A program made the position numbers and the translations under genes. The notes beneath the pieces were generated by a model. The model was not told where the DNA came from. It made no database searches and worked only from the letters and a program-made list of their open reading frames with translations. This document shows, piece after piece, positions 4,161 to 55,842 of a stretch of 64,000 bases of DNA (its first letter is position 1; each line of letters begins with the position of its first letter). The stretch comes from a bacterium (GTDB lineage: Bacteria > Planctomycetota > JAFGQW01), in the NCBI GenBank assembly GCA_030426805.1, contig JAUHXU010000006.1:199716-263715 (forward strand), read 5' to 3'.

Positions 4161-4937
4161 ATGAACATCCGTCCTGCCGTCGCGGCCCTCGCGACGCTCC
4201 TCGCCCTCGGTGCCACCGCCACGACCCAGCTGTCGGTCGAGGTGAAAGGCCCCGTGCCGCAGGGGAGCAACGTCTTCACCTACATCGAGGCGACCGTACC
4301 GACCGAGTTGCGCAGCGCGTGTCCCGAGGAGATTCGCGCCGGAAGCCCGATCGGCCCGGTCGTTCGTGGTCCCGGCCCGTGCATCCTGCTCCTCGTCGTC
4401 GTCGGGCCGAACAGCCCGTACACGAACCTCGGTTGGGACGGGCGGGACTCGAACCGGGCGCCGGTCGCCCCCGGCACCTACTACATGAAGATCGCCCACC
4501 GCCCGGTGAACACCAACGTGCCGTGGACCGATCACTGGGTGCCGGTGCACATCACCCCGCAGACCCCGCCGCTCGGCCCGCTGCTGTCGGCCCCGGCGAT
4601 GACGAGCGGCCAGACGTGGCCGATCTCGCTCAGCGATGCGGCGAATCCGTCGGCCTCCTACTGGATGGCCGCGTCGTTCACGACGAACCGCGGGTTCGGT
4701 TTCGGGCCGGTGCACATCGCGCTCGACATCGATCCGCTGTTCCTGCTGTCGTTCCCCGCGCCGAACCCGGCGATCTTCTCGGGCTTCCAGGGCGTGACCG
4801 ACAACGCCGGCAACGCGAGCGCGTCGATCTCGGTGCCGCCGTTTGCGCCGCGCGGCCTCCAGGTGTGCGTGCACGCGATCGTGCAGAACGGTTTGACCGT
4901 CAACGCGACGAACCCCCTCACGCGCGTCGTCCGGTAA
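4161..4937 (+). CDS. Secreted hypothetical protein, paralog family A copy 1
   Basis: Signal peptide (MNIRPAVAALATLLALGATA). Motifs SACPEEIRAGSPIGPVV, PGTYYMKI, YWMAAS, LDIDPLF, GFQGV are shared with 27262..28050 and 28277..29062. Confidence 0.7.
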   Translation: MNIRPAVAALATLLALGATATTQLSVEVKGPVPQGSNVFTYIEATVPTELRSACPEEIRAGSPIGPVVRGPGPCILLLVVVGPNSPYTNLGWDGRDSNRAPVAPGTYYMKIAHRPVNTNVPWTDHWVPVHITPQTPPLGPLLSAPAMTSGQTWPISLSDAANPSASYWMAASFTTNRGFGFGPVHIALDIDPLFLLSFPAPNPAIFSGFQGVTDNAGNASASISVPPFAPRGLQVCVHAIVQNGLTVNATNPLTRVVR

Positions 4938-11937: not shown

Positions 11938-13569
<1,632 letters not shown>

Positions 13570-13595
<26 letters not shown>

Positions 13596-24929: not shown

Positions 24930-25913
24930 ATGCGCCGGATCTTCACGCTGATCTCACTCGCCGTCTGCGTCGGCGCGGCCGCCGGCCAGGCGACCGTCTG
25001 CTACCCGGACAACCAACCGAACGCCGGTGGGTTCAACAGTTTCCCGTTCGGCACGAACTTCGGCGGGACGAACTGGCGCTACCAACTCCGGATCCCGGCG
25101 TCGGCCCTGCCGAACGGGCCGGTGCGGGTCACCGAGGTGGCGTTCGCCCCCGGCGGCAACGGCACGTTCGCGGCGGGCGACTTCCAGCTGCGCGCCGCCC
25201 ACACCGCGGCCGCGTCCCTGTCGACGTGCTTCTTCCAGAACATCGGGCAGTGCCCGACCGAGTTGATCTCGGTCCAGGGGCGCCCCGGCTTCTCGTGGAA
25301 TGTCACCGCGAATACGTGGGATCCGATCGGAACCCAGTGCGACTTCGGCTACGACGGTCAGCGTTCGATCGTCCTCGAGATCCGCTACCGCAACCGCTCG
25401 AGCGGCTTCATCTCGTCGCGCATCGGCAACGTCGAGCGGACCTGGGCGAACGACTCGACCGCGCCTGCGGCGCTCGATCCGTATTCGGCGGTCTGCGGCC
25501 AGGCGGACAACTCGGGCATGAAGGTGTGCCTGACGTACGAGAAGGACACCGTGCTCCTCGCATCGGACACGGTTTCGCTCGGCGGCGCGTTCAGCATCCA
25601 GATGGTGAACTGCCCGACCGGCCCCTACCGGATCGCCGCTTCGTTCGACCAGGGGCCGCCGATCGTCTTCGCGAAGGGCTGCCGCCTGTGCTTGCAGGTC
25701 GACGGGCTGTTCTGGGCGTCGCTGCTCGTCGGGCCGCCGATGTTCGCCGGGTATTCGGGCACGATCCAGAACGGCACCGCGAACGCGCGGATGTCGATCC
25801 CGACCCAGACGCTCCTCGTCGGCGTGTGTCTGTTCCACGGCGGCGTCGTCCTCGATCGCGCCGGCCAGATCCAGGCGTGCTCCAACACCGCGGGGACCGT
25901 GATCGTGCCGTAG
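24930..25913 (+). CDS. Secreted hypothetical protein with shared C-terminal module (family C)
   Basis: RBS GAGGAGG precedes the ATG at 24930. Signal peptide (IFTLISLAVCVGAAAGQA). The C-terminal ~95 aa align with the C-termini of the family A and B proteins. Confidence 0.65.
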   Translation: MRRIFTLISLAVCVGAAAGQATVCYPDNQPNAGGFNSFPFGTNFGGTNWRYQLRIPASALPNGPVRVTEVAFAPGGNGTFAAGDFQLRAAHTAAASLSTCFFQNIGQCPTELISVQGRPGFSWNVTANTWDPIGTQCDFGYDGQRSIVLEIRYRNRSSGFISSRIGNVERTWANDSTAPAALDPYSAVCGQADNSGMKVCLTYEKDTVLLASDTVSLGGAFSIQMVNCPTGPYRIAASFDQGPPIVFAKGCRLCLQVDGLFWASLLVGPPMFAGYSGTIQNGTANARMSIPTQTLLVGVCLFHGGVVLDRAGQIQACSNTAGTVIVP

Positions 25914-25957
25914 CGGCTCTGGTATCCTGGCCCGCGGACGTTTCCGAGGAGGATGCC

Positions 25958-27157
25958 GTGGGCCCGATCACCGAGCGCGCCGAGTTTCCCGGTCACGACG
26001 GCAGCACACTCGCCGCGCGGCTCGACCGACCGGTCGGCGCCGCGCGTGCGTTCGCGCTGTTCGCGCACTGCTTCACGTGCGGGAAGGACATCGCCGCCGC
26101 GACCCGCATCGCGCGCGCGCTCGCCGAGCATGGCGTCGCGGTGTTGCGCTTCGACTTCACCGGACTCGGACACAGCGAGGGCGAGTTCGCCAACGCGGAC
26201 TTCACGTCGAACGTCGAAGACCTCGTCGCGGCGGCCGGATGGTTGCGCGAGCAGCACGCCGCGCCCGCGCTGCTGATCGGCCACAGCCTGGGTGGGGCGG
26301 CCGTGCTCGCGGCGGCCGGCGACATCCCGGAGGTGCGTGCCGTCGTGACGATCGGCGCACCGTCGGATCCGGGCCACGTCGAACGGCTGTTCGCGTCCGA
26401 CGTCGATGCGATCGAACGCGACGGCCGCGCGGAAGTTCAGATCGCCGGGCGACCGTTCACCGTCACGCGCGGCTTCATCGACGACGTGCGCGCGCAACGC
26501 CTGAGCGACCGAATCGGGTCGATGCGCAAGGCGCTGCTCGTGATGCACGGCACGTTCGACGACATCGTCGGACTCGACAACGCGGCGGCGATTTTCGAGG
26601 CGGCCAAGCACCCGAAGAGCTTCGTCTCGCTCGACTCGGCCGATCATCTGCTCAAGCGCGAGGCGGACGCACGCTACGCGGCCTCGGTGATCGCCGCGTG
26701 GGCCGACCGCTACGTGCCCGAACTGAGCGCGTCCGACCGCGAGCGCCCGGACGCGCAGGTCCGCGTCGATGAGACCGGCGAAGGCCGCTACACCCAGGCG
26801 ATCGCCGCCGGGCGCCATCGACTCGTCGCCGACGAGCCCGCTCGCGTCGGCGGCGACGACCGCGGACCCGCGCCGTACGACTTCCTCCTGGCCGCTCTGG
26901 GCAGCTGCACCGCGATGACCCTGCGGATGTACGCCGAGCGCAAGGAGTTGCCGCTCGACCGGGTCGTCGTCGACCTGGACCACGACAAGGTCGACGGCCC
27001 CGAGGGCAAGAAGGTCGACCGGATTCGGCGCGTCGTGACGATCCGGGGCGATGCGCTCACGGCAGCCCAGCGAAAGCGACTCCTCGAGATCGCCGATCGC
27101 TGCCCGGTGCACCGCACGCTCGAGTCACGGGTGCGGATCGAGACGACCGGCCTGTGA
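25958..27157 (+). CDS. Bifunctional alpha/beta hydrolase / OsmC-Ohr family protein
   Basis: GAGGAGG RBS, then GTG at 25958. Hydrolase nucleophile elbow GHSLGG. C-terminal OsmC pattern (DDRGPAPYDFLLAALGSCTAMTL...CPVHRTLE). Confidence 0.85.
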   Translation: MGPITERAEFPGHDGSTLAARLDRPVGAARAFALFAHCFTCGKDIAAATRIARALAEHGVAVLRFDFTGLGHSEGEFANADFTSNVEDLVAAAGWLREQHAAPALLIGHSLGGAAVLAAAGDIPEVRAVVTIGAPSDPGHVERLFASDVDAIERDGRAEVQIAGRPFTVTRGFIDDVRAQRLSDRIGSMRKALLVMHGTFDDIVGLDNAAAIFEAAKHPKSFVSLDSADHLLKREADARYAASVIAAWADRYVPELSASDRERPDAQVRVDETGEGRYTQAIAAGRHRLVADEPARVGGDDRGPAPYDFLLAALGSCTAMTLRMYAERKELPLDRVVVDLDHDKVDGPEGKKVDRIRRVVTIRGDALTAAQRKRLLEIADRCPVHRTLESRVRIETTGL

Positions 27158-27261
27158 TCCCGTCGGCTTCGGGTTGCGCGTTTCGCTCGCTTGCCGGACA
27201 CTGACGGCGTCCGGGGACTTATTGAGGGGTCCTGGGGAACGCCAACAGAGGAGTCGAAACG

Positions 27262-28050
27262 ATGCATCTCCGAACCACATTGGCCCTCGTGGCCGGCCTC
27301 GGCCTCGCCGGACTCGCCTCGGCGCAGACGAACGTCGGAATCCTGTCCGGCGAGGCGCCGTCGCCGGTGCCGATGGGGAGCGCAGTGCCGCTACGGATCG
27401 AAGCGACCGCGCCGATGAGCCTCGCGTCCGCGTGCCCCGACGAGGTGCGCTTCGGCAGCCCGACGGGACCGATCGTCTGGAAGCCGACGTTCTGCATCCT
27501 CCCGTTCATCACGGTCGGGCCGGGTCGGCCGTACACCCAGATGGCGTGGGACGGCACGGACAACCAGAACCGTCCGGGGCCCGCAGCGCCGGGGACCTAC
27601 TTCATCCGGTTCCGCGGTACCGACGCGAACACGAGCAACCCGTTCTCGGTCCGGTGGGTGCCGGTGCGCATCGATCCGGTCACCGGTCCGACGCTGCCCG
27701 TGCTGAAGGTCGGCGCGTTGACCCGCGGGACGACGGCGCCGCTCGGCGTCAGCGATCCGCTCAACGCGAACGCGCCGTATTGGATCGCCGCGTCGCTCGG
27801 CACGAACACCGGGCAGAACCTCGGGCCGGTCGGCCATCTGGCGCTCGACTTCGACCCGCTGTTCTTCGTGACGCTGAACAACATCAGCGGGCTGACGGCC
27901 GGGTTCCAGGGCACGCTGTCGGGCGGTAGCGCGTCGGCGTCGATCCTGATCCCGAACATCGCGGTGCTCCAGGGCGCCCAGATCGCGTTCCAGGGCGCGG
28001 TTACGACCAGCCTCGTGTTGACGAACCCGGTGCAGAAGATCATCGGCTGA
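27262..28050 (+). CDS. Secreted hypothetical protein, paralog family A copy 2
   Basis: Signal peptide (LALVAGLGLAGLASAQ). Strongly similar along its length to 28277..29062 and similar to 4161..4937. Confidence 0.75.
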   Translation: MHLRTTLALVAGLGLAGLASAQTNVGILSGEAPSPVPMGSAVPLRIEATAPMSLASACPDEVRFGSPTGPIVWKPTFCILPFITVGPGRPYTQMAWDGTDNQNRPGPAAPGTYFIRFRGTDANTSNPFSVRWVPVRIDPVTGPTLPVLKVGALTRGTTAPLGVSDPLNANAPYWIAASLGTNTGQNLGPVGHLALDFDPLFFVTLNNISGLTAGFQGTLSGGSASASILIPNIAVLQGAQIAFQGAVTTSLVLTNPVQKIIG

Positions 28051-28276
28051 GCCGACCCGCGATCGGCGGGCGGCATGGCGGACGACCCCGTCTCGATTCG
28101 AGCCGTAGGGAATGCGCCCAAGTCGGTTGCACGCCCGCCGAATCAGCACGAAACTCTACCGTGTCGGCGCGAGACGCCGTCGTGGGTCGGTGTCAATCCG
28201 AGCCGGAGGGGATTCACGGGATCTTCACGTTCCCGGGAGCCGGGCTCGCCCAGCAAATCAGGAAAAGGAAGAAGCG

Positions 28277-29062
28277 ATGAAGAAGCGAATCGTGTTGGCC
28301 CTCGCCGTCGGGCTCGGCCTGTCGGGTATCGCGAGCGCGCAGAACAAGGGGATCCTGTCGGTCGAGGCGCCGTCGCCGGTGCCGCTCGGCAGCACGGTCA
28401 CGCTTCGGATCGAAGCAACTGCACCGATGACGCTGCGCATTGCGTGCGTCGAAGAGGTGCGTGAGGGCAGCCCGACCGGCCCGGTCGTCTATCGGTCGAC
28501 GTTCTGCATCGGTCTGCTCGTGATCGTGGGTCCGGGCGGCGCGTACAACAACATGGCGTGGCCGGGCACGGCGAACCAGCCGAACCAGACGATCAAGGCG
28601 AACACGACCTACTACATCAAGATCATGGGGCGCGACGCCAATACGAGCAACGCGTTCTCGGAGCGGTGGGTCCCGGTCCGCGTGGATCCGGTCTCCGGCC
28701 CGACCGCGCCGGTGTTGAAGGCGGGTGCGGTGACCCGCGGTGCGACCGTGCCGCTCGGCATCAGTGATCCGCTGAACCCGACCGCGCCGTACTGGATCGC
28801 CGCGTCGCTCGGCACCAACACCGGGCAGAACCTCGGTGCGATCGGCCACCTCGCGCTCGACTTCGATCCGCTGTTCATCGCGACGCTGAACAACCTCACC
28901 GGCCTGACGACGGGCTTCCAGGGCACGTTGTCCGGCGGCAGCGCGTCGGCGTCGATGATGATCCCGAACATCCCGGCCCTCCAGGGCGCCCAGGTCGCGT
29001 TCCAGGCGGCGACGACCGCGAGCCTCTCGCTGAGCAACCCGATCCAGAAGGTGATCGGCTGA
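28277..29062 (+). CDS. Secreted hypothetical protein, paralog family A copy 3 (tandem duplicate)
   Basis: RBS AGGAAAAGGAAG precedes the ATG at 28277. Signal peptide. Near-colinear similarity to copy 2 (ACVEEVREGSPTGPVVY, YWIAASLGTNTGQNLG, LALDFDPLF, GFQGTLSGGSASAS). Confidence 0.75.
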   Translation: MKKRIVLALAVGLGLSGIASAQNKGILSVEAPSPVPLGSTVTLRIEATAPMTLRIACVEEVREGSPTGPVVYRSTFCIGLLVIVGPGGAYNNMAWPGTANQPNQTIKANTTYYIKIMGRDANTSNAFSERWVPVRVDPVSGPTAPVLKAGAVTRGATVPLGISDPLNPTAPYWIAASLGTNTGQNLGAIGHLALDFDPLFIATLNNLTGLTTGFQGTLSGGSASASMMIPNIPALQGAQVAFQAATTASLSLSNPIQKVIG

Positions 29063-32550: not shown

Positions 32551-35500
32551 TCAGAGGCCGCGTGGGTCGCCGTCGACGAAGCGGTCGAGTTCCGGCGTGC
32601 CCCGCCGCACGCCGGCGCGGTAGGCCGACGTCACGAGCACGGCGGGCCACAGGCGACGGCGGAGGGCGAGGCCGAAGTAGTGCGCCGCCTCGTCGCCGTT
32701 GCCCGCCAGCGCGTGCAACTCCGCGGCACGGCTCGCCGCGATCGGATCGCCGATCGCGTCGGCCGCGTCTTCGAGGCACTCGAGTGCGTTCGGACGATCA
32801 CCGGCCGCCGCGAGCGCGAGGCCGAGGAGCAGGTTTCGCACGCCCTCGCGCGTCTCGTCGGTCTGGGTCGGCAGGGCACGCGCGGTCGCGACCGAGCGGT
32901 CGCCCGCGAGGATCGCCTGGAGGGTCGTGCGAACCGCCGGCGTCGTGTCGTCCGCGCGGCCCCACGCGATCAGCAGTGCGTGGTAGCCGAGCCACCAGGC
33001 GCGCACGACGCCCGGGATCTCCGCGTCGCGCACCGATTCCCAGCGTCCTCGCGCGGCGTCCACCCAGAGGCGCGCCAAGACCAGCTCCGGCGCATCGACC
33101 GTGCCATCCAGGTCGTCGACGGCGGCGGCGAGCCCGTCGATCCCGCCGGTCTCGTGCGCGAGCCACAGGCGCACGAGCGCGCTCCGCCGCGTGGGCGCGA
33201 GTGCCGCGGCGAGCGTGCGCGCTTCGTCGTCGTCGCCGTTGGCGAAGCGGCAGAGCACGCGGAACTCCTGGCGCACATCGCCGTTGATCCCGTGCAGGCG
33301 CGAAGCGTCCTCGAAGTCGGTAGCCGCCCGGTCGACGTCGAGGCGGTTGAACCGACAGATCGCGCGGTGCACGACCGACCAGCCGCCGCGATACCCGGCG
33401 TCGATCAACTCCGCGTAGAGGCTCTCTGCGCGAGCGAAGTTGCGTGCGGCGAAGTTGAGGACCGCCAGGCCGTGGACGAACTCCGGGTCCCGGCGGATCG
33501 CGATCGCCGCGCGAAAGTCCGCGGCGGCGTCGTCGGGTGCGACGCGCATTCGCAGCTGTGCGCGGCGGGCGAGCAGGATCGCTCGCGTCGAATCGCGGAG
33601 CCGCGTCGCTGCGAGCGATCGCTCGACGAGCGCGAGGGCCGCGCGGACCTGCCGGCGTTTCATGTGCAACGAGATCAGGGCGAGCACCGCGCGGTCGGTC
33701 GGGGCGCGCTCGACGGCGCGGCCGAGATCGGCTTCGGCGTCGTCGAAACGGCGCGGATCGATCGCGAGCAATTCGCCGCGGCAGATCAGCAAGCCGACGT
33801 CGTCGGGGTGGCGCTCGATCGCTTCGTCGAGGAGCGCGAGGCCCCGTGCGCGCGTATCCGGTCGCGCGCACCACACCCGCGCGATGCCGCGGATCGCGTG
33901 GGTCGAACTCGGGACTTCCTCGCGCACCCGCTGGAAGTCGCGGAGCGCGTCGTCGAAGGCGGCGACCTCGACCGGAATGCACGAGAAGCCGCGCTGCACG
34001 TAGGCGCGCCACAACCGAGGAGCCGCATCGATCGCGATCGTGAACTGGTCGCGGGCTTCGCGCGGTTGATTGAGTCGGGCGAGTGCTTCGCCGACGAAGA
34101 ACGTGATCGCCGTCGACCGCGGCCAGCGCTTGCGCGCGGCCCGCGCCGCGTGCAGTGCCGCTTCGGCGTGGCCCGACGTGATGTGGTCGGCGATCGCGAG
34201 CGTCGCGTCGAGGCGCGTCGCCGGTTCGGCTGCGCGGATGCGGGCGCGAATCGGGGGCAGCTCGTCGGATCGGTCGAGCGCCCACAGCGCGCGGGCGCGG
34301 ATCAGGTCGGCCGCCAGCGAGGCGTCGCCTCCGTGAGCGGATGCGCGTGCGAGCGCGTCCGCCGGCCGGTCGGCGACGACGTCGTGGATCGCGCGGAGCA
34401 ACTCGACGCGCGGACGATCCGGCAGCGACGCCAGCGCTGTCGTGACGCGGTCGTCGAGCAGCGACGCACCGTCGACGTACGCGAACTCGACCGCCAGCGC
34501 ATCCTCGCAGTGGTCGAGGGTGCGCTCGACGATCGCCGCGTCGACGCGTGCGAGCGCCGGGCGCACCCGGTCGGCGGCGCCGGCCGAGTCGATCGCCTCC
34601 CGATACGTCGCGCGTGCGGCGTCGAGGTCGCCGGTCGCCTCGAAGGCCGCGCCGCGGCGCAGCAGCCGCTCGGCGAGGGCTTCGCGATCGCGGTCGCGGG
34701 CGCGGCGCTCGACGATCGCCCACGTCACGATCGCGATCACGACCGCCACGAGCACGCCGGCGGCGAGCGTCGCGACCGGGCGACGCCGTGCGCGTCGCCA
34801 CAAGCGACCGGCCGGCCCGACGCGCGATGCGACGACGGGCTCGCCGTCGCGGAATCGGATCAGGTCGTCGCGGAACGCCGCGGCGCTCGCGTAGCGAAGG
34901 CGCGGTTCCTTCTCGAGCGATCGTTGGATCACGTTCGCGAGGTCGCGCGGCAAACGCCGGTCGACGCGATCCAGCGGCGGTGGGTCGTGGTGCAGAACGC
35001 GATTGAGCGTCGTCGCCGACGTGCCCCCGTCGAATGCGAGGTGGCCGGCGAGCGCTTCGTAGAGCGTCGCTCCGAGGGCGAACACGTCGGCGCACGCCGT
35101 CGCGTCCTCGCCGGCGATGCGCTCCGGCGCGATGTAGCTCGGAGTGCCGAGCAGGTGCCCCGAAGCGGTGAGCGACTGCGACGACGCCTCGCGCGCGAGC
35201 CCGAAGTCCGCGAGGTGGGGCGCGGCGGTGCGGTCGAGCAGGATGTTCGCCGGCTTCACGTCGCGATGGATCAGCCCGTGCTCGTGCGCGACGTGCAGCG
35301 CGTCCGCCACGTCGATCCCGATCGCGACGATCGAATCGACCCAGCCGCGGATGCCGCCGGGGCTCGGCGCCGGCCCGTCGCTGCGCAGGACCCGGTGGAG
35401 CCCTTCGCGCGTGCGCTCGGGGTTCGCGCGCAAGACGCCGTGCAGTGACTCGCCGTCGATCCACTCCATCGCGAGGTAGAGGAAGCCGTCCTCGTCGCCG

Positions 35501-35934
35501 AAGGAGTGCACGCGAACGATCGCCGGATGGGTCAACCGTGCTGCGAGTGCGGCCTCGCGCTCGAACCGTTCGCGAAGCGCCGCCGTCGCCGCGTAGCCCG
35601 GCGGCAACACCTTGACCGCGACCGTGCGGTCGAGGACCGGTTGGTAGGCGCGATACACGATGCCCATGCCGCCGCGGCCGATCTCGTCGCCGATCTCGAA
35701 CTCGCCGAGTCGTCGGGGGCCGTCGGTCTGCAGCGCCGCGGGCCCCATCGGCGTCGCGGCGGGAGCGCTCGCACCCTCGAGGTCGGCGAGGACGCGTATC
35801 TCCCGCAGGACCGAGTCCGCGTGCACCGGATGCCGGCGGCGAAACGAGGTCTCGTCGAGACGGTCGTCGCCGAGCAAGTCGAGTGCCTCCTCGAGGGCGC
35901 GGAGGCGTGCGGGATCGGGCTCGGGGGTCGTCAT
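32551..35934 (-). CDS. Serine/threonine protein kinase with TM segment and extensive TPR repeats
   Basis: Hanks kinase motifs GRGGMGIVYRA, VAVK, HRDVKPANILL, DFGLA, GTPSYIAPE. TM helix (LAAGVLVAVVIAIVTWAIV). About 700 aa of TPR-like repeats follow. Confidence 0.9.
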   Translation of the reverse strand: MTTPEPDPARLRALEEALDLLGDDRLDETSFRRRHPVHADSVLREIRVLADLEGASAPAATPMGPAALQTDGPRRLGEFEIGDEIGRGGMGIVYRAYQPVLDRTVAVKVLPPGYAATAALRERFEREAALAARLTHPAIVRVHSFGDEDGFLYLAMEWIDGESLHGVLRANPERTREGLHRVLRSDGPAPSPGGIRGWVDSIVAIGIDVADALHVAHEHGLIHRDVKPANILLDRTAAPHLADFGLAREASSQSLTASGHLLGTPSYIAPERIAGEDATACADVFALGATLYEALAGHLAFDGGTSATTLNRVLHHDPPPLDRVDRRLPRDLANVIQRSLEKEPRLRYASAAAFRDDLIRFRDGEPVVASRVGPAGRLWRRARRRPVATLAAGVLVAVVIAIVTWAIVERRARDRDREALAERLLRRGAAFEATGDLDAARATYREAIDSAGAADRVRPALARVDAAIVERTLDHCEDALAVEFAYVDGASLLDDRVTTALASLPDRPRVELLRAIHDVVADRPADALARASAHGGDASLAADLIRARALWALDRSDELPPIRARIRAAEPATRLDATLAIADHITSGHAEAALHAARAARKRWPRSTAITFFVGEALARLNQPREARDQFTIAIDAAPRLWRAYVQRGFSCIPVEVAAFDDALRDFQRVREEVPSSTHAIRGIARVWCARPDTRARGLALLDEAIERHPDDVGLLICRGELLAIDPRRFDDAEADLGRAVERAPTDRAVLALISLHMKRRQVRAALALVERSLAATRLRDSTRAILLARRAQLRMRVAPDDAAADFRAAIAIRRDPEFVHGLAVLNFAARNFARAESLYAELIDAGYRGGWSVVHRAICRFNRLDVDRAATDFEDASRLHGINGDVRQEFRVLCRFANGDDDEARTLAAALAPTRRSALVRLWLAHETGGIDGLAAAVDDLDGTVDAPELVLARLWVDAARGRWESVRDAEIPGVVRAWWLGYHALLIAWGRADDTTPAVRTTLQAILAGDRSVATARALPTQTDETREGVRNLLLGLALAAAGDRPNALECLEDAADAIGDPIAASRAAELHALAGNGDEAAHYFGLALRRRLWPAVLVTSAYRAGVRRGTPELDRFVDGDPRGL

Positions 35935-36054: not shown

Positions 36055-36654
36055 ATGGCGACCGATCCGCAACTCACTCAGGAGATCGTCGACGCGATTC
36101 GCGCGGGCGACCGCTCGGCGTTCGACGCGCTGTTCAACCGCGTGGGCGGCAAGGTCTACGTCTACATCTTCAACAAGCTGGGCGATCGGCTGCGGACCGT
36201 CGTCGAGCCGGAAGACGTGCTGCAGGACGTCTATGCGACCGCGTTCTCGTCGTTCGACGACTTCGTGAGTCGCGGCAGCGGGTCGACCGCACGGTGGCTG
36301 ATCGGGATCGCCCGCAATCGGATTCGTCACCTCTACGGCCACCACTTCGACCATCAGAAGCGCGATCCGCGTCGCGAAGTGCCCCTCGACGGCGGCACGT
36401 CGGCGACCGAGATCCCGCTCGCGAGCGACGAGCCGTCACCGAGTCGCGTGATCGCACGCGACGAGGAGGTGCAGCGCCTCGCGACCGCGCTCGCCGAGTT
36501 GTGCGACGAGGACCGCGCGGCGATCCTCGCCCACTTCGAGGGCGAGTCGATGGCGGTGATCGCCGAGCGCGCGGGCGTGCCGCGCACGACGATGCTCTAT
36601 CGCGTCTCCCAGGCGTTGCAGCGGCTCGGCGGCCTGGTCCGGGACGACGACTGA
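36055..36654 (+). CDS. ECF-type RNA polymerase sigma factor (sigma-70 family)
   Basis: Sigma-2 region pattern (DVLQDVYATAFSSFDDFVSRGSGSTARWLIGIARNRIRH). Sigma-4 HTH (ILAHFEGESMAVIAERAGVPRTTMLYRVSQALQRL). Divergent from the kinase gene. Confidence 0.8.
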   Translation: MATDPQLTQEIVDAIRAGDRSAFDALFNRVGGKVYVYIFNKLGDRLRTVVEPEDVLQDVYATAFSSFDDFVSRGSGSTARWLIGIARNRIRHLYGHHFDHQKRDPRREVPLDGGTSATEIPLASDEPSPSRVIARDEEVQRLATALAELCDEDRAAILAHFEGESMAVIAERAGVPRTTMLYRVSQALQRLGGLVRDDD

Positions 36655-42184: not shown

Positions 42185-43405
42185 ATGAAGCGAAACCTGC
42201 TGATCCTCACGCTCGTCGTCGCGGCACTGGGTGCCTCGGCGCACGCCCAACCGAAGAAGGGCGATCTGATCGTCACGAGCCACATCAACGACTACGTGGG
42301 TGTGATCGACCGATCGACCGGCGCGTTGACGACGCTGTCGACGTTGCCCGGCGATCCGATCCCGTCGATCATGGCTGCGAACAACCGCGACGTACTCGTC
42401 TTCGAGCGCCCGTCGCCGTGGAACGTGTGGAGCGTCGACCCGAACGGCACGCTCGCGCCCGTCGCGACGTCGAGCGCGTCGGGTGAGGGAGCAATCACCG
42501 GTGCGGACTGGTTGCAGGACGGCACGGTCCTGACGTGCTCGACGGTGTTCGGCACGCGGGGCTGGCTCCGCAGCCTGAACCTGACGACGAACACCTACAC
42601 GACGCTCTTCACCGCGCCGATCTCCCACTTCCGCCACGCATCGGTCAACAAGGACAACGGCCGCTACCTCGTCTGCCTGTGGGGGACCGGCGGTTCGATC
42701 CTCGAAATCGACGCGACGACGCAGACGATCACGACGGTCGTATCCGGCTACACCGGCACGTCCGCGGTCGACACCGATTCGTCCACCGGCAACATCGTCT
42801 TCTCCAACGAGGACTCGTTCAGCGGTGGGATCAACGTCGTCACGCAGGCGGGCGCGCTGGTCCGCACGATCGCGCTGCCCGTCGCGCGCGCGGTGCGGGT
42901 GGACGACGTCACCGGCAACTACGTCGCGCCGACGTCGAACAGCGGCACGATGGCGTCGCGCGTCGTCGAGTTCGATCAGGCCGGCAACGCGGTGCGCACC
43001 TACGGCCCGTACGGCACCGACGGCTTCGCGGGCATCGAGATCTACGGGTCGCGATCCACCAGCGGGGCCGGCACGGCGAAGCCGGGTACGAGCTACCAGG
43101 TGACGTTCTCGTTCCCCGGGTTCGGCGGATCGGCGTATGCGGGTGCGCTGTCGTTCTCGTCGCGCCCCGGCCTCGCAGTGCCCGGCGGCACGATCCACCT
43201 CGGCTTCGACAACCTGTTCCTCGCGTCGATCAACGGCCTGCTCGTCCGCAACTTCCAGGGCACGCTCGGCGCGTCCGGCCAGGCGACGGGCTTCATCGAC
43301 CTGCCGGCGTTCCTGCCGGCGGGTGTCCGCTTCTACTGCGCGGGCGTCGCGATCAGCGGCGGCGGGTTCGTCACCGGCAACACGATCGGCATCACGGTGC
43401 AGTAG
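42185..43405 (+). CDS. Secreted beta-propeller-like protein with shared C-terminal module (family B copy 1)
   Basis: Signal peptide (LLILTLVVAALGASAHAQ). Repeated beta-propeller-like blades. C-terminal ~95 aa homologous to the family A and C C-termini. Paralog of 54652..55842. Confidence 0.7.
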   Translation: MKRNLLILTLVVAALGASAHAQPKKGDLIVTSHINDYVGVIDRSTGALTTLSTLPGDPIPSIMAANNRDVLVFERPSPWNVWSVDPNGTLAPVATSSASGEGAITGADWLQDGTVLTCSTVFGTRGWLRSLNLTTNTYTTLFTAPISHFRHASVNKDNGRYLVCLWGTGGSILEIDATTQTITTVVSGYTGTSAVDTDSSTGNIVFSNEDSFSGGINVVTQAGALVRTIALPVARAVRVDDVTGNYVAPTSNSGTMASRVVEFDQAGNAVRTYGPYGTDGFAGIEIYGSRSTSGAGTAKPGTSYQVTFSFPGFGGSAYAGALSFSSRPGLAVPGGTIHLGFDNLFLASINGLLVRNFQGTLGASGQATGFIDLPAFLPAGVRFYCAGVAISGGGFVTGNTIGITVQ

Positions 43406-43481: not shown

Positions 43482-44396
43482 TCAGAACGACAGGATCGCG
43501 GAGAACGTGAAGCGCGACGAGAACAGGTCGTCCTGATTCGTCAGGGGGAACTCGTAGGCTCCACGGATCGCGAGGTCGGGGAGCGGACGCAGCTCGAGGG
43601 CGACCGCCGCGGTTACGACGTCGTCATCCTTGCCGCCGCCGAGGTTCAGGGCGTCGACGCCCTGGAACGGCACCACCACCTTACCCTCTTTGGTCGTGTA
43701 ATGGCCGTTGGCCTCGACGACCGGACTGAGCCAGTCACACACGCGATAGTCCGCGCGCGCGTGCCAGCTGATGCGGTCGGAGTTGCCGAGGTCCATCGGA
43801 TCGTTGCTGCGTTTGTCCGGGCCGTAGAAGTAGTTGAACGTCGCGCCGCAGTGGAAGCGACCGAAGCCCTTGTCCACCGAGACCCAGCCGCGGATCTCCT
43901 CGTCGTCGTGGTGGATGCGCTTGGAGCCGATCGACAGCTCGTAGCCGACGCCCGCCGCCGCGTGGAACTGGTGCTCCCAGCACTGCAGGAAGTTCCACTT
44001 GAGTCCGGCCGCGACGTCGTTCCACCCGCGCTCGCGCAGTGGCTTCAGACCGGGGTTCATGTCCGAGTAGCCGTCCTTGTAAGCGACGAACTGGAGCTGA
44101 TCGGTGAGCGCGACGCGGAGTTGCAGCGCGTAGATCTGCAGGTTGCCGCCGGCGAGGGCGCTCGTCTCGGTGAACTTGTGGTAGAGGTAGACCGCGCGGA
44201 TGTCGGTCGTGACGAACGAGTCCTCGTGGAAGTAGGGCGACGTGATCGGATGCACGTGGCGGTGTGCCGCGTCTTGCTCGGCGCCGTCTTCGTCGGGCGA
44301 GCCGAACAGCACGAAGCCGGCGTGTTGGGCCGGCAGCGCCGGCGCGGCGAGCGCGCACACGGCGAGGACGATCAGAATGAGGCGTGGATACTTCAT
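43482..44396 (-). CDS. Outer-membrane beta-barrel protein (MetA/phenol-degradation-like transporter family)
   Basis: Start ATG 44396 with signal peptide (LILIVLAVCALAAPALPAQ). Amphipathic beta-strands. C-terminal ...FTFSAILSF with a terminal Phe. Confidence 0.6.
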   Translation of the reverse strand: MKYPRLILIVLAVCALAAPALPAQHAGFVLFGSPDEDGAEQDAAHRHVHPITSPYFHEDSFVTTDIRAVYLYHKFTETSALAGGNLQIYALQLRVALTDQLQFVAYKDGYSDMNPGLKPLRERGWNDVAAGLKWNFLQCWEHQFHAAAGVGYELSIGSKRIHHDDEEIRGWVSVDKGFGRFHCGATFNYFYGPDKRSNDPMDLGNSDRISWHARADYRVCDWLSPVVEANGHYTTKEGKVVVPFQGVDALNLGGGKDDDVVTAAVALELRPLPDLAIRGAYEFPLTNQDDLFSSRFTFSAILSF

Positions 44397-44630
44397 CAGC
44401 GCGAAATCCCAGTCCGCGGCGCCGTCGACGGCCCCGTGCCGCCGGTCCGCACCGCTGTCGCGCGGGATCGCAAAGGGCGTGCCGTTCACCGGGAGCGCGC
44501 GTTCGCGCGAATCGCGGCCGTCGACGCGTTCAGTTGACGGTCGGCTGAACGCTCCGGGGCGGTACGCGAAACGACGCGGGCCGCCCGCCAAGAGAGGCCG
44601 GCCCGCGTCGATGGAAGGGACGGACGCGAA

Positions 44631-46796
44631 TCAGTTCGCGTCGTCGCGTCTGTTCGGGTTCCCGAACGTGACCTCGATGCCGCCGAACACGCTGAACGGT
44701 CGGCCCGGGTTGAACACACCGGTGTCCATGCCCCCGGCGTCGGCGAGGTTGCCGGTGTTCGAGGCGTAGTGCCGATCGGTCAGGTTCTGCGCGTCGATGA
44801 ACGCCGTCCAGCCGTTGGGGCTGCGATACCCGGCGGTGGCGCCCCAGATCGCGTACTTGCTGTTGCGCAGCGTGTTCGCGAAGTCGACGTTGAACGTCGA
44901 GGCCATCTCGAAGTTCGCGCCGATGTAGAAGCCGCACGGGTGCTCGTAGACGAGCTCGGAGCGGATGAGGTGCGGCGGAATGCCCGGCAGCGCGTTGGAG
45001 TGCCAGCTGTCGTCGCCGGAGAAGCGCAGCACCGTGTAGGTGTAGGCGGTCCGGAGACGGAAGCCCTGGTCGCCCTCGTGCTCCCCGCGGCAGAACAGCT
45101 CGGCATCGAGGAAGTGCTCGAATCCGACTTCGAGTCCGTAGTGGACCGTGTCGTCGGCGTTGCCGGTGATGCTCATGCCGGAGTTCGGCGGGCTCTGGAT
45201 CGTCAGGATCTCGTCGTCGAGCAGCGAGTAGTAGCCGGTCACCTGCCAGTGGGTCTTGCCGTCGTCGCTGCGTCCGCGCGCGCCGAGTTCCGCGGTCCAA
45301 CCGGTCTGGTCGTCGATCGTGCCGACCTGGTTGATCGTGTCGCCGTCGGTCGGCGGCTCCCAGCTCTTCGAGATCGAGCCGTAGAACTGCGTCGTGTCGC
45401 TGGCGTCGAAGAGGAAGCCGATCTTCGGGTTGATCGAGCTGTAGTCTTCGTCGGAGTCGACCAACGTGTTCGAGGTATCGAACGACACGGTCTCCTCACG
45501 ATCGGCGAACCCGCCGTGGAGACCGGCGATCAGCGTGAACGAATCGCCGAGCTTGATGCGGTCTTCGATGTAGACCTCGTAGGTCATCGACTCGTTCTCG
45601 GTCGAGTTGTTCTTCGGCGTGCCACCCGGCGCATACTGCTTCGAGCGGTCGTAGCCGATCAGCGCGATCCCGCCGACGACGAGCTCGTTGCCCTCGGCGA
45701 TCTCGCCGGTGTAGCGAACGCTCGCCGCGATGTCGGTGCGCTCCTGGCGGATCGTCAGGAACGGCAGCGGGTGGTGCATGCGCAACCACTGCGCGCCGAC
45801 GCCGATGTCGAGGCGCGAGCCGTCGCTGAAGCGACCGGTGTGCTGGACGTCGAAGCGGTTGACGTTGAAGTTGCGCTCCGCATCGCGTGCGCGCCAGAAC
45901 CCGTTGGGCTGCGTCGGGTCCATCCGGATCTGCGCTCGGGTCAGCGAGCCCGGAAGCTCCAACTCGTTGTCCTGCGACTGGAAGTGGATCCGCGTCTCCC
46001 ACGTGTCGTCCCAGCGCTTGCCGATGTTGCCGTAGAGGCGCCAGACGCGCTCCTGGCTCTGGTCCTGGCGGAAGCCGCCGTTGTTGAGCTGCGAGCCGGA
46101 GACGAAGTAGTCCCAGCCGTTGCCGAGCACGGCGCCGCTCGACGCCTGGACCTGTTGGAAGTCGTCCGAGCCGCTGGAGAGGCGCAGTCGGAACTGATCC
46201 GCGTCGTAGCCGGTCGGCGTGATGAAGTTGATCGCACCACCGAGCAGCGACGAGCCGTAGGTGAGGCCGTTGCCGCCGGGATAGACCTCGGTCGCGACGA
46301 CCGTCAGCGGGTCGAAGAGCTGCGGCCGGGCGTTGCCGTCGGCCTCGGAGATCGGGATGCCGTTCTGGAACAGCCGCACGCCGATCAGGTTGAACGTCCG
46401 TCGCAGGCCCGAGCCGCGGATGACGACGCGGGTCTCGCTGTTGCCGAAGCGGCTCGCGGAGTAGACGGCAGGCGTCCACCGCAGGACGTCGCTCAGATCG
46501 GCCGCCCGGCGATCGCGGTAGAGATCGTCGGTGATCAGGTCCGCGCCGCCGGGGACCTTGTCGAGGTCCTCGAGCCGCTGATCGATCGACTTCGACGTGA
46601 ACGCGACGGGCTTGTCGTCTTCCTTCTCGGCCTCGCGGGTCGCCACGACCTCGTCGGTCGGCAACTGCTTCTCGTCACCGGGGGGTGTGTCCTGACCCCC
46701 GCTGCCCGCCTGGGCGTATGCGTCGCTGCCAGCGACGGCGAACGCTCCGACGAGTGCGCACACGCACACTCCACGCAGCATCTTCATGCCACTCAC
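44631..46796 (-). CDS. TonB-dependent outer-membrane receptor
   Basis: Signal peptide. TonB-box-like DEVVATR. Plug-domain motifs (LSDVLRWTPAVY...RVVIRGSGL). Long beta-barrel region. Confidence 0.85.
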   Translation of the reverse strand: MSGMKMLRGVCVCALVGAFAVAGSDAYAQAGSGGQDTPPGDEKQLPTDEVVATREAEKEDDKPVAFTSKSIDQRLEDLDKVPGGADLITDDLYRDRRAADLSDVLRWTPAVYSASRFGNSETRVVIRGSGLRRTFNLIGVRLFQNGIPISEADGNARPQLFDPLTVVATEVYPGGNGLTYGSSLLGGAINFITPTGYDADQFRLRLSSGSDDFQQVQASSGAVLGNGWDYFVSGSQLNNGGFRQDQSQERVWRLYGNIGKRWDDTWETRIHFQSQDNELELPGSLTRAQIRMDPTQPNGFWRARDAERNFNVNRFDVQHTGRFSDGSRLDIGVGAQWLRMHHPLPFLTIRQERTDIAASVRYTGEIAEGNELVVGGIALIGYDRSKQYAPGGTPKNNSTENESMTYEVYIEDRIKLGDSFTLIAGLHGGFADREETVSFDTSNTLVDSDEDYSSINPKIGFLFDASDTTQFYGSISKSWEPPTDGDTINQVGTIDDQTGWTAELGARGRSDDGKTHWQVTGYYSLLDDEILTIQSPPNSGMSITGNADDTVHYGLEVGFEHFLDAELFCRGEHEGDQGFRLRTAYTYTVLRFSGDDSWHSNALPGIPPHLIRSELVYEHPCGFYIGANFEMASTFNVDFANTLRNSKYAIWGATAGYRSPNGWTAFIDAQNLTDRHYASNTGNLADAGGMDTGVFNPGRPFSVFGGIEVTFGNPNRRDDAN

Positions 46797-52170: not shown

Positions 52171-53622
52171 GTGATGAAACGGCTTTGCCTCTCGATCGCG
52201 ATCGTGTGGATCGCGTCCGCCAGCGTTCCGGCGCAGAAGCGCTTCGTCGACGAGACGTTCGGCTACACGGTCAAGACGATGAAGAAGTGGGCCGCGGTGC
52301 CGGTCGAGCCCACGGACGCGAGCCTGATCGCGGCGCGCTGGTCGTCGGACCGGCGGGATCGCCACGGGTGGGGCGAGATGATCGTGCGCTTCTTCCGCCG
52401 CGGCGCGACCGGCGGCCTCACGACGGAGTCGCCGACCGAGGAGAAGGGCGACAAGCCGACGCCCGAGACGCTGGAGGAACTCTTCCGCCGTCTGATGGCG
52501 CGATCGCGATACACGTCGTACGCCGAGTGGTGCGGTGACCGGAGACCCCTCGGCAAGCCGACGCGCTTCAAGGGGAAGGCGCCGAGCGGCGTCGACGTCA
52601 CCGCGAACTTCTACGAGATCGAGACGAAGCACCACTTCGTGATCGTCGGGGTCTACACGACCGAGCACCTCGAACTCGCGGTCGAACTCACGTGCGCGCT
52701 GGAGGGCAAGCGCAAGTACCGCTCGGCGTTCAAGTCGGTCGCGAAGTCGCTCGTGTTGACGCGCGCGCCGCAGTCGCGCGCGGCCGCCGAAGCCGCCGCG
52801 GACGCCAAGCGCGGCAAGAGCGCCCGCGAGCGCGCGCTCGCGAAGGTGCGCGAGGACGCGGCCCGCGTGAAGGGGTGGTGGTTCCTCGAGAGCGCGCACT
52901 ACGTGATCGTCACGAACTACCCCAAGCGCAAGAAGTCGCGGATCCTCGACCTGCAGCGCCGCCTCGAGGCGATCCGCAAGCACTTCATCACGGACCTCCC
53001 GCCGGTGCGCGAGATCGAGGAGATCTCGATCGTGCGCGTGTGCAAGGACCGCAAGAGCTACTTGCAATACGGCGCGCCGCCGGCGAGCGCGGGCTACTGG
53101 TACGCGGCCGCCGAGGAACTCGTGATCTACATGGAGGGCGAGAAGGACTTCACGCGCGCCGTCCTGAACCACGAAGCGTTCCACCAGTACGTCCACTACG
53201 CGGCGCGCGTGCGACCGCATACGTGGTACAACGAGGGCAACGCCGACTACTACGGCGGCTGCGAGGTGCAGGGGTCGCGGCTCGTGTCCGAGAAGAACCG
53301 GATGCGACTCGATACGATTCGCGGGGCCATCCGGGCGGGCACGCACGTGCCGCTCAAGGAGATCCTGACGCTGTCGCACTCGGGCTACATGGCGCGTGCG
53401 ACCCTCTGCTACGCGCAGGGCTGGAGCCTCGTCTACTTCCTGCGTGAGGGCGTGCCGTCGTCGCACCCGTGGGCGAAGATCATCCCGACCTACTACCGCG
53501 TGCTGTGCGAGAAGAAGAAGGCGTCGGTGGCGCTGCGGGCCGCGTTCACGCAGGTCGACCTCGAGGACTTCGAGAAGGCGTGGGCGCGCTTCATCACGCG
53601 CGGCGACCCGGTGCGATCGTGA
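52171..53622 (+). CDS. DUF1570-like secreted protein with HExxH motif (putative metallopeptidase)
   Basis: Signal peptide (LCLSIAIVWIASASVPAQ). NHEAFHQYVHY motif. Paralogous to 15599..17032 (shared ...YYGG..., GWSLVYFL-like C-terminal segments). Confidence 0.7.
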   Translation: MMKRLCLSIAIVWIASASVPAQKRFVDETFGYTVKTMKKWAAVPVEPTDASLIAARWSSDRRDRHGWGEMIVRFFRRGATGGLTTESPTEEKGDKPTPETLEELFRRLMARSRYTSYAEWCGDRRPLGKPTRFKGKAPSGVDVTANFYEIETKHHFVIVGVYTTEHLELAVELTCALEGKRKYRSAFKSVAKSLVLTRAPQSRAAAEAAADAKRGKSARERALAKVREDAARVKGWWFLESAHYVIVTNYPKRKKSRILDLQRRLEAIRKHFITDLPPVREIEEISIVRVCKDRKSYLQYGAPPASAGYWYAAAEELVIYMEGEKDFTRAVLNHEAFHQYVHYAARVRPHTWYNEGNADYYGGCEVQGSRLVSEKNRMRLDTIRGAIRAGTHVPLKEILTLSHSGYMARATLCYAQGWSLVYFLREGVPSSHPWAKIIPTYYRVLCEKKKASVALRAAFTQVDLEDFEKAWARFITRGDPVRS

Positions 53623-54539
53623 AGCGGCGCGGAGCCCGACTCGCGGCACTCGTGGCCGCGGCGGTGATGCTCGGCGGCTGCCTGACCCGGGAGGTGTGGG
53701 ACGGTCACCGACCGCACGTGCGGGCCGTCAGCGAGCACACGGCGTCGTATCCGGTGCGCGACGCACGGGTCGCATCCGACGGCACCGTCGCGGTCGCGTT
53801 CAACGCAGACGACAAGGCTCGCCCCGACGCCGCGCTGCGCCCGGCGTGTTTCCGGCTCGAGCCGCCCGGCGGCGCGTCGATGATCGTGCCGCTGCTCGAC
53901 CGTCTCCGTCCGGGCACGACCGCGGACGACGACCTCGAGTGGTGCGCGACGTTGCAGAGCCGCGATCGCAACGGCGACCGTCGTTCACGGGCGTGGTTCG
54001 CCGACGTCACCGTGCGTGCGTGGGAGCCGATCGTGATCGGCCCCGTCGCGCCGGCCGCCTCGCCCGACGCCGTCGGGAAGGCGGGGCGGCTCGTCGATGC
54101 ACTGCGCGCGGCGGGAATCGTCTGGGCGCCGGTCGGGTGGCGTGACCGAGAGGGGCGCATCCTCCCGGTGTGCGATCCGCTGGTCGCGCGTGGCGTACGA
54201 CTCGTCGGGCGCCTCGACGACGGCGGCATCGTCGCGTTCCCCGCCTACTTCGCGGTCGCGCCGGAACGCGTCGTGTGGGCGCACGACGACAACCGGATCG
54301 CGTGGTCGATCACGGAGCGGTGGCTCGCCCGCCGGGACGCCCCGAACCAGGCGGGCAGCACGCCCCTCGTGCTGCCCAAGGACGCCACGCTGGACCACGT
54401 GCACGTCGACGTGCGCAAGCGCCGGACGACGTGGCAGACCCTCGGTCGAATCGCGCTGACGCCGTTCGCCGCGACGATCGACGCGGCCGGGATCCTCGCG
54501 ATCGCCTGGCTCGAGTCCGAACTCGACGACGACTGCTGA
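53619..54539 (+). CDS. Hypothetical lipoprotein
   Basis: GTG at 53619 overlaps the upstream stop (GTGA). Signal with Cys (AAVMLGGCLTRE). No recognised domain. Confidence 0.5.
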   Translation: MKRRGARLAALVAAAVMLGGCLTREVWDGHRPHVRAVSEHTASYPVRDARVASDGTVAVAFNADDKARPDAALRPACFRLEPPGGASMIVPLLDRLRPGTTADDDLEWCATLQSRDRNGDRRSRAWFADVTVRAWEPIVIGPVAPAASPDAVGKAGRLVDALRAAGIVWAPVGWRDREGRILPVCDPLVARGVRLVGRLDDGGIVAFPAYFAVAPERVVWAHDDNRIAWSITERWLARRDAPNQAGSTPLVLPKDATLDHVHVDVRKRRTTWQTLGRIALTPFAATIDAAGILAIAWLESELDDDC

Positions 54540-54651: not shown

Positions 54652-55842
54652 ATGAAGCGCCTCACCCTCACCCTGCTCGCCGCCTCGCTTCTCGCCGGCG
54701 CCCTCGGCGCCCAACCGCAGTCCGGCGACTACATCGTCGCGACGCACACGAACACCGGCCGCATCCTGCGGGTCACGACCGGCGGGTCGATCCAGACGCT
54801 CGCGTCGATGCCGGTCGGCACGAACATCCAGGCGGTCACGATGGACGCGTTCAACCAGAGCGTCGCCGCGGTGACCGAGTCGTCCACCCTCGATCACTTC
54901 GTGCTGATGACGCAGAGCGGAAGCACGTCGACGATCGTCCAGTTCCCGGGCAACCGGGTCACGTCCGGCATCGAAATCGATCAGGACGGCAACTTCGTCG
55001 TGTCGCGGTTCGACACGATCTTCAAGGTCAACGTGCCGCAGCGCACGTTGACGACCGTCGTCAGCGGGCTGCCCACCGTCGTCAACGCGATCACGATGGA
55101 CAACGACACCGGCGACTACATCGTCGGGACGACCGCCGGCCGACTGCTGCGCGTGGACCAGATCACCGGGCAAGTGTCGACGATCGGCACGGGGCTCGGC
55201 TCGATCACCGGGCTCGATCACGACCCGCGCACCGGCAACTTCGCGGTGATGGTCGTCGGCGTGCTGAAGATCGTCAACCGCTCCGGCGGCGTCGTCTCGT
55301 CGGTCGCGACGACGACCGGCCAGGCCGTCAAGATCGACGACGAGTTCGGCCACTACCACTGCGCCGGCTTCCAGGCGATCGAGGTCTTCGACCGCAACCT
55401 CTCGCGGATCGACTCGACCGCGTTCCCGACGTCGCTCAACCTCGGCGGGATCGAGATCTACGGCTCGCGCAAGGTCAGCGGTGTCGGCACCGGTCAGCGC
55501 GGCAGCATCTACACGCTGCGACTGAAGTTCCTCCGCACGACGAGCGGCAGCTTCGGGTGCGGCATCAGCCTCGTCGGTCTGCGCCCGGGTCTCCGCCTCG
55601 CCGGCCGCGTGATCAACATCGCGCCGGATCCGCTGTTCTTCCTGTCGGCGTCGAACCAGCTCGACGGGTTCTTCACGCAGAACTTCGTCGGCCTGCTGAC
55701 CGCGGGTCGCGCCGCCGCGAGCTTCACGATCCCGCCGTATCTCCCGGTCGGATCGACCGTCTACGCGGCTGCCAACGCGGTCAACCCGAGCCTGCCGGGC
55801 AACCTCGACTTCGGCAACACGATCGTCGTCTCGGTGCGCTGA
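54652..55842 (+). CDS. Secreted beta-propeller-like protein with shared C-terminal module (family B copy 2)
   Basis: RBS GGAGGA precedes the ATG at 54652. Signal peptide (LTLTLLAASLLAGALGAQ). Paralog of 42185..43405 over its whole length, including the C-terminal module (INIAPDPLFFLSASNQ...AAASFTIPPYLPVGSTVYAAANAV). Confidence 0.7.
   Translation: MKRLTLTLLAASLLAGALGAQPQSGDYIVATHTNTGRILRVTTGGSIQTLASMPVGTNIQAVTMDAFNQSVAAVTESSTLDHFVLMTQSGSTSTIVQFPGNRVTSGIEIDQDGNFVVSRFDTIFKVNVPQRTLTTVVSGLPTVVNAITMDNDTGDYIVGTTAGRLLRVDQITGQVSTIGTGLGSITGLDHDPRTGNFAVMVVGVLKIVNRSGGVVSSVATTTGQAVKIDDEFGHYHCAGFQAIEVFDRNLSRIDSTAFPTSLNLGGIEIYGSRKVSGVGTGQRGSIYTLRLKFLRTTSGSFGCGISLVGLRPGLRLAGRVINIAPDPLFFLSASNQLDGFFTQNFVGLLTAGRAAASFTIPPYLPVGSTVYAAANAVNPSLPGNLDFGNTIVVSVR

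Follow-up and report, generated by a model that had tools for sequence, protein, structure and literature searches.

A C-terminal Ig-like module shared by unrelated secreted proteins defines a new bacterial domain family

The signal for export by a type IX secretion system (T9SS) is itself a C-terminal beta-sandwich of the immunoglobulin (Ig)-like type (PMC4804311). Type A C-terminal domains (CTDs) of this system (Por_Secre_tail, PF18962/TIGR04183) are folded units located at the extreme C-terminus of Sec-exported proteins; they are carried by many unrelated passengers, among which proteases, propellers and adhesins, occur many times per genome, and are encoded by dispersed genes (PMC4804311). 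The CTD of RgpB is made of 7 strands, and spans ~65-80 aa (PMC4804311). Here we describe a module found at the C-terminus of six secreted proteins encoded by a 64,000-nucleotide stretch of bacterial DNA (contig JAUHXU010000006.1 of assembly GCA_030426805.1), hereafter called the window. The module is like the type A CTDs in its predicted Ig-like fold, its place at the end of Sec-exported proteins, its many unrelated passengers, its multiple copies per genome and its dispersed genes. Unlike them, it has no sequence or profile similarity to CTDs, lacks CTD motifs, is larger and is occasionally not terminal; moreover, no T9SS genes were seen in the window or in the ~10-kb flanks of other module loci, and the carrier lineage does not resemble Bacteroidota. 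PEP-CTERM/exosortase, LPXTG/sortase and GlyGly-CTERM/rhombosortase signals are also C-terminal tags carried by many paralogous secreted proteins per genome. These signals, however, consist of a short motif, a transmembrane helix and a basic tail, whereas the module is a soluble beta-sandwich of ~115 aa, closed by a beta-strand and lacking a hydrophobic helix. Dockerins (type I, PF00404) may be taken as analogues in behaviour only, being single, usually C-terminal units which bring many secreted enzymes to a common partner. Dockerins adopt a Ca-binding EF-hand-like fold and not a beta-sandwich, and no cohesin-like partner was identified here. PPC (PF04151), PKD and CARDB are small beta-sandwiches which reside at the C-terminus of secreted peptidases and exported enzymes, tolerate other positions and, to our knowledge, have no dedicated machinery. 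In contrast to them, the module has no model match, never occurs in tandem, is far more strictly terminal and is also found on many non-enzymatic propellers. On present evidence the module counts among the Ig-like accessory domains that secreted proteins of bacteria carry, and forms a new family of a known type.

The six proteins fall into three families by all-versus-all BLASTP, A (A1, A2 and A3, 44-70% identity), B (B1 and B2) and C, which has one member (Table 1). Translation confirmed the six open reading frames (ORFs) and the peptide strings quoted in the initial annotation, which had spotted a C-terminal segment common to the three families, fused to unrelated N-terminal regions. Both statements hold. 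Similarity across families is limited to the C-terminal part, where BLASTP matches score 28-38 bits (pairwise E values 1e-3 to 6e-7); B2 and C do not match directly by BLAST, and are linked only transitively. Identity between modules of different families is 24-33%, and 11 columns are invariant in the alignment of the six sequences. Such low identities, and the missing match between B2 and C, might suggest that the resemblance is due to chance or to composition, in DNA with a GC content of 70% throughout the window, with no true shared domain. As a control, profiles drawn from one family at a time were run against all the 613 stop-to-stop ORFs of at least 50 aa found in the six frames of the window. 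Members of the families left out were recovered (from A, C at 1.4e-9 and B2 at 4.8e-6; from B, A1 at 2.6e-9; from C, A2 and A3 at 2-3e-6), and no other ORF was reported. Similarly, the six-member profile recovers only these six proteins in the window. The database matches and the structural model described below point in the same direction, as 618 representatives align at E ≤ 1e-10, all in one C-terminal register, and the confidence of the model depends on the alignment. A chance origin is excluded, its probability being next to nil, and the module is a genuine, mobile domain.

The boundaries set by the initial annotation, a unit of ~90-95 aa corresponding in B1 to positions 43118-43405, turned out to be too narrow. 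The module measures ~112-120 aa (~115 as a rule), and starts further upstream (Table 1). An additional conserved segment, G-x-x-Y-x-[LIV], lies ~20 residues upstream of the earlier boundary, and forms a strand in the model of B1. The signature of the module reads Y-x-x-A-x-S ... (R)PG ... L-x-x-D-x-L-F ... F-x-G-x-L-D-x-x-G-x-A ... I-P ... G ... N, with near-invariant residues at G11, Y28, S33, G39, L49, D52, L54, F55, G69, G75, A77, P84 and G90. The six proteins of the window score 98-126 bits against a profile made from 61 diverse module sequences. Each family has its own module subtype, marked by IPNIxxLQGAQ in A, GNTIGITxR in B, and CxNTAGTxIVP in C.

The module is not restricted to the paralogues of the window. 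When 1.84 billion cluster representatives were searched exhaustively with the profile, 2336 sequences matched at E ≤ 1e-3, of which 618 reach E ≤ 1e-10 and 3 reach E ≤ 1e-30. Nearly all the carriers come from metagenome assemblies (JGI, Logan, ENA), where they are named hypothetical protein, one cluster being called streptogramin lyase. The genome of the window itself is represented by a 431-kb NCBI contig and in run ERR3428544. The loci found via protein homologues have a GC content of 62-71%. A search of GTDB genomes with the B1 locus alone found no relative, and a tblastn search of plasmids with a consensus-like module gave no match. One hit was discarded. P0005 (4832 aa, 1.9e-26) matches the profile by 21 short stretches covering profile positions 7-33 only, and is a repeat artefact; hence, low-ranking matches among the 2336 may include false positives. 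P0005 is a giant repeat protein, which carries a gliding-motility-type C-terminal domain.

The position of the module within proteins was assessed in two samples. In the first, made of the 155 top sequences (149 database matches and the six proteins of the window), the module runs to the final residue in 106 proteins, and stops no more than 3 residues from the C-terminus in 145, and no more than 14 in all 155. According to a simple heuristic, 87 of 116 full-length representatives have a signal peptide. The second sample is independent of protein scores, and was obtained by scanning metagenome contigs with a degenerate DNA pattern encoding F-x-G-x-L-D-x-x-G-x-A-x5-[LIV]-P. True modules were found at 53 of the 120 loci returned, in 64 ORFs, the remaining loci being chance matches in high-GC DNA. 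In 58 of 63 complete ORFs the module resides within 20 residues from the stop codon. Proteins with two copies of the module were found in neither sample. Several module genes may share a contig. Besides the six of the 64-kb window, four lie within 11.9 kb of L086 and three within 21 kb of L082, while L088 has two.

The passengers are diverse, and of kinds typical of secreted cargo. The N-terminal parts of the 155 sequences form at least 12 groups, among which no similarity was detected, with B-like (104), A-like (17) and C-like (7) sequences followed by nine smaller sets. Passenger types include SGL, NHL, PD40, FG-GAP, Kelch and BNR propellers, peptidases of the S8, M64, M1, M14 and trypsin families, Amidase_3 and CARDB. 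Among 57 proteins of the DNA-pattern sample, Pfam matches were to FG-GAP (8), S8 (3), M64 (3), Kelch (3), PD40 (3), CARDB (3), M1 (2) and BNR (2), and once each to M14, Amidase_3, Sortilin-Vps10 and TIG. The module follows a Peptidase_S8 domain in L082, and an FG-GAP protein in L088. Compared within families, the module shows a degree of conservation no lower than that of the passenger, but the comparison is biased, matches having been picked via the module, and is not relied on.

The number of hydrolases among passengers (S8, M64, M1, M14, trypsin, BNR/sialidase-like, Amidase_3) fits the possibility that the module binds a polymer or a surface ligand in the manner of CBM, PKD or PPC domains, and brings hydrolases and propellers to their target, with no sorting machinery involved. 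Accessory domains with a binding role frequently occur once per protein and at the C-terminus. Internal and N-terminal copies, proteins in which the module stands alone after the signal peptide, and the lack of linked machinery near module loci agree with it as well. Still, no CBM, PKD or PPC model matches the module, and its near-invariant residues are mostly glycine, proline and hydrophobic residues, which look more like the core of a structure than like a platform of aromatic residues for binding. In addition, the module is never in tandem and is terminal in 92-100% of cases, a pattern stricter than is usual for binding modules. We regard a ligand-binding role as possible, though somewhat less likely than the explanation favoured below.

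The AlphaFold2 model of the B1 module, built on the 61-sequence alignment, has a predicted local distance difference test (pLDDT) score of 95.9, and a predicted template modelling (pTM) score of 0.85. In a single-sequence control, carried out on A2, the pLDDT was 36. The beta-sandwich that the initial annotation had suggested to look for is indeed what is predicted. The model is an Ig-like sandwich of ~9-10 strands, with one short helix (residues 53-59) starting at the D-x-L-F motif; the F-x-G-x-L-D-x-x-G-x-A signature makes a hairpin, and the last strand reaches the C-terminus, with an amphipathic end of the type [TVI]-[IVL]-[RQPE]. The fold, as modelled, is a generic Ig-like beta-sandwich, and its closest known counterparts include generic Ig-like domains of bacteria and eukaryotes, such as the MG domains of C3, C5 and alpha-2-macroglobulin, the Big domains of intimin and invasin, and the Ig domains of PECAM and LILR. 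Judging from the model, the module is a self-folding domain of about 115 aa, with no earlier name.

A fold that generic would also suit a purely structural domain, a stabilizing cap, a spacer or an oligomerization element inherited vertically within each family, and devoid of a common partner. The existence of family-specific module subtypes, indicative of old and stable fusions, goes along with this, as does the organization of family B proteins, in which the module comes straight after the propeller, behind a Y-G-x-R motif that does not vary (in the majority of members, YGSR), and no linker intervenes. Structural need alone, however, hardly accounts for one copy, almost always the last domain, on at least 12 to more than 20 kinds of passengers unrelated to one another, and proteins consisting of a signal peptide and the module imply that the module has a function of its own. 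A merely structural role is therefore unlikely.

Named domains were looked for by several routes. No Pfam-A or NCBIfam model matches the module at E ≤ 1, either in the six proteins or in the 61 diverse modules, and no Pfam family matches the module region in full-length carriers (133 tested at E ≤ 0.01, 57 at E ≤ 1e-4). The profile, compared to every PDB chain sequence, retrieved nothing at E ≤ 10. Specifically, the module is matched by no family hidden Markov model (HMM) of Big_1-Big_9, MG, invasin/intimin, FlgD_ig, CARDB or TIG, named Ig-like families whose domains mostly form tandem repeats; CBM and PKD models do not match it, and PPC is missing from the 61 modules as from the full-length carriers. 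NCBIfam models of sorting signals match neither the six proteins nor the 61 modules, consistent with the remark of the initial annotation that no named sorting motif is present. The same remark had pointed to the lack of a transmembrane segment with an arginine tail. Signals of the exosortase, sortase or rhombosortase type were considered and rejected, as an amphipathic beta-strand closes the sequences, the model stays all-beta up to its final residue, and neither a transmembrane helix nor a basic tail is present. The literature search found no description of such a domain. Absent from Pfam-A (2025 copy), NCBIfam 20.0 and PDB, the module is, at the level of sequence, a new large family, which neither matches a named domain nor is confined to these paralogues.

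The similarity to the T9SS logic raises the question whether the module may be a highly divergent CTD, recognized by a T9SS of these organisms. The setting is the same, as a Sec signal peptide is combined with a C-terminal Ig-like beta-sandwich, proteases and propellers are many, and several such proteins are present per genome (PMC4804311). Yet, PF18962/TIGR04183 gave no match at E ≤ 1 in the six proteins and the 61 modules, nor were they found in the 133 and 57 carriers among the matches listed (25 of 31 families for the 57). The type B CTD models (PF13585/TIGR04131) do not match the six proteins and the 61 modules either, and hhalign comparison of the 61-sequence module profile with one type-B-like CTD, the C-terminus of P0005, yielded a probability of 0.9%. 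The empty PDB search counts in the same sense, though whether T9SS cargo chains are present in that set was left unchecked. At ~115 aa, and with a helix besides its 9-10 strands, the module is larger than the RgpB domain. T9SS components and PF18962 proteins were not seen among ~50 proteins of the window or ~70 called neighbour genes (64 kb and ~10-kb flanks of other loci). Finally, the nearest relatives listed for the CTP synthase PyrG encoded in the window are Planctomycetota, and not Bacteroidota or other phyla of the FCB (Fibrobacteres-Chlorobi-Bacteroidetes) group. PyrG is only ~63% identical to the best of the matches listed from 185,579 GTDB species genomes, among which the organism appears to have no close relative, and 7 of the 8 top ones belong to Planctomycetota; the next listed, within 1-2 points, are from Nitrospira, Kryptonia, Omnitrophota and Gemmatimonadota. 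With other phyla so near, the organism may yet possess a T9SS. A divergent T9SS domain is nevertheless improbable.

The explanation we favour, tentatively and with a probability of roughly 40%, is that the module is a common C-terminal handle for the targeting or docking of Sec-exported proteins in a group of high-GC diderm bacteria, most of them uncultured. It is ranked first because the module is strictly single within a protein, strongly biased towards the end, shared by many passengers unrelated to one another and encoded by dispersed multi-copy genes, a combination also shown by T9SS CTDs and dockerins. Ig domains that serve as spacers or binding units usually follow a less strict pattern. 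Genes for the cargo of sorting tags are usually dispersed. Proteins would cross the inner membrane by the Sec route, and lose their signal peptide; the N-terminal passenger (a peptidase, a beta-propeller or a small Ig domain) and the terminal module would then fold. A shared, lineage-specific partner may recognize the module, either a component of an outer-membrane translocation or shuttle system, or a surface receptor docking it in the manner of dockerins. Many unrelated passengers would thus be brought to, or kept at, one extracellular place. We infer, in this scheme, that a partner recognizes the module, that the proteins are translocated or retained, and whatever cleavage may take place. 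A more specific version of this proposal sees the module as the recognition signal of an undescribed pathway of outer-membrane export or surface anchoring, either analogous to the T9SS CTD or dockerin-like, in uncultured high-GC diderms possibly related to Planctomycetota, with a cargo of dozens of peptidases and beta-propeller proteins per genome; so stated, it seems rather unlikely.

Several observations weigh against a targeting or docking handle. The sorting-domain-like behaviour suggested by the initial annotation stands as far as terminal bias and unrelated passengers are concerned, but a terminal position is not obligatory. In five ORFs of the DNA-pattern sample (~8%) the module, or a distant relative, is internal or N-terminal. 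In L117 (1-5961, + strand) a B-like propeller is followed by the module (91 bits), and then by ~770 more residues; L138 (1-2517, +) has a weak internal copy after FG-GAP repeats. In L160 (400-2112, +) and L180 (2195-3679, -) the module or its relative comes right after the signal peptide and precedes Kelch propellers, and in L114 (1-1917, -) it occupies the same place, ahead of other domains. Small proteins, P0067 (153 aa) and the product of an ORF in L150 (3274-3744, +), consist of a signal peptide and the module only. Taken together, these cases indicate that a free C-terminus is preferred and not required. No terminal motif is conserved beyond [TVI]-[IVL]-[RQPE], and no obvious flexible linker precedes the module in family B. 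Moreover, the module of B1 is 66% identical to that of its orthologue, but shares only 24-27% identity with the modules that families A and C have in this genome. Modules have co-diverged with their passengers, which means that the fusions are old, and show no sign of having been homogenized within the genome towards a single receptor. Lastly, neither in the window nor near the 53 module loci is a candidate partner, a secretion component or a processing enzyme linked to the module, the last being a companion that the initial annotation had envisaged. The 76 ORFs found within 4 kb of these 53 loci contain no recurrent family, the maximum being 3 of 76 (CarboxypepD_reg, TPR). Because of the positional exceptions, the generic fold and the lack of linked machinery, the binding and structural alternatives remain serious competitors of the handle.

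The genes for the six proteins (Table 1) are scattered among unrelated housekeeping genes in the window. The N-termini were judged from the sequence by eye, with no predictor, and all read as Sec-type signal peptides, as the initial annotation had maintained, with 1-3 basic residues, a hydrophobic core and an A-x-A/G motif followed by Q. The start of B1 is preceded by a Shine-Dalgarno-like GGAGAG, 7-12 nt 5' of the ATG at 42185, and the database protein P0158 (406 aa) is 100% identical to B1 from this ATG. Homologues of the N-terminal region of family B match SGL, NHL, Mala_s_1-like and Vgb_lyase propeller models. In family A, the passenger is a small Ig-like domain with weak similarity to FlgD_ig.

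Table 1. Module-bearing genes of the window (positions refer to the whole stretch)
Feature	Coordinates	Strand	Remarks
Gene B1: signal peptide, beta-propeller-like N-terminal region, C-terminal module	42185..43405	+	406 aa plus stop
Module of B1, start corrected	43061..43402	+	HMM envelope; AlphaFold2 predicts a beta-sandwich
Gene B2, 396 aa, paralogue of B1 (29% identity)	54652..55842	+	module 55474-55839
Gene A1, 258 aa: signal peptide, small domain of the Ig-like type weakly matching FlgD_ig, module	4161..4937	+	module 4584-4934
Gene A2, 262 aa	27262..28050	+	module 27700-28047
Gene A3, 261 aa, tandem paralogue of A2 (70% identity)	28277..29062	+	module 28712-29059
Gene C, 327 aa: signal peptide, N-terminal region of ~200 aa matching no family, module	24930..25913	+	module 25554-25910

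Three of the six genes are grouped at 24930-29062 (+), where C is followed by an alpha/beta-hydrolase-OsmC fusion (25958-27154), and then by A2 and A3. An independent assembly of this sequence (L001) has the genes in the same order. A1 is flanked by the gene for a small Ras/Arf-like GTPase of the MglA type (2475-3506, +) and a Roadblock/LC7 gene of the MglB type (3541-4050, +), located directly upstream, and by the gene for a sigma-54-dependent response regulator (4985-6328). The MglA/MglB-like pair looks like a GTPase switch of the polarity or motility type. Downstream of B1, and convergent with it, an ORF at 43482-44588 (-) encodes a protein of 368 aa which has a signal peptide, matches no Pfam family, ends in ...AILSF and resembles an outer-membrane beta-barrel; this gene is located directly downstream of that for a TonB-dependent receptor (44631-46793, -). 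Large proteins made of CarboxypepD_reg (transthyretin-like) repeats are encoded at 6361-8121 (+) and 17145-19289 (+), with two and six matched stretches, respectively. Apart from TPR, no family but CarboxypepD_reg occurs more than twice near module genes elsewhere, though its frequency, given above, is not significant. A 1126-aa Ser/Thr protein kinase with TPR repeats (32551-35931, -) is divergent from a sigma factor of the extracytoplasmic function (ECF) type (36055-36651, +). The kdsB-pyrG gene pair resides at 11131-13592 (+), and the neighbours of the six genes further include genes for a TPR protein, an OprB porin, a DegP-like protease and LpxD. Since LpxD, BamB-like, OprB and TonB-receptor proteins are encoded in the window, the organism is a diderm with lipopolysaccharide. 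ARAGORN reported a 92-nt tRNA-Ala(CGC) at 54124-54215 (+), within the ORF 53469-54539; the Rfam scan of the whole window found, at gathering thresholds, no tRNA or other RNA family, and the call is probably a false positive.

Even if the module were only an accessory Ig-like domain, it would be a solid new family of domains of unknown function, comprising more than 2300 clusters at 50% identity, and provided with a confidently predicted fold. Its definition would improve the annotation of many secreted metagenome proteins now listed as hypothetical. Should the module instead be a tag for targeting or docking, it would label the secretome, or the surface proteome, of poorly known lineages, and its HMM, combined with phylogenetic profiling, would provide a direct handle on a new machinery for secretion or anchoring, just as the PEP-CTERM and T9SS CTD families served in finding exosortases and the T9SS.

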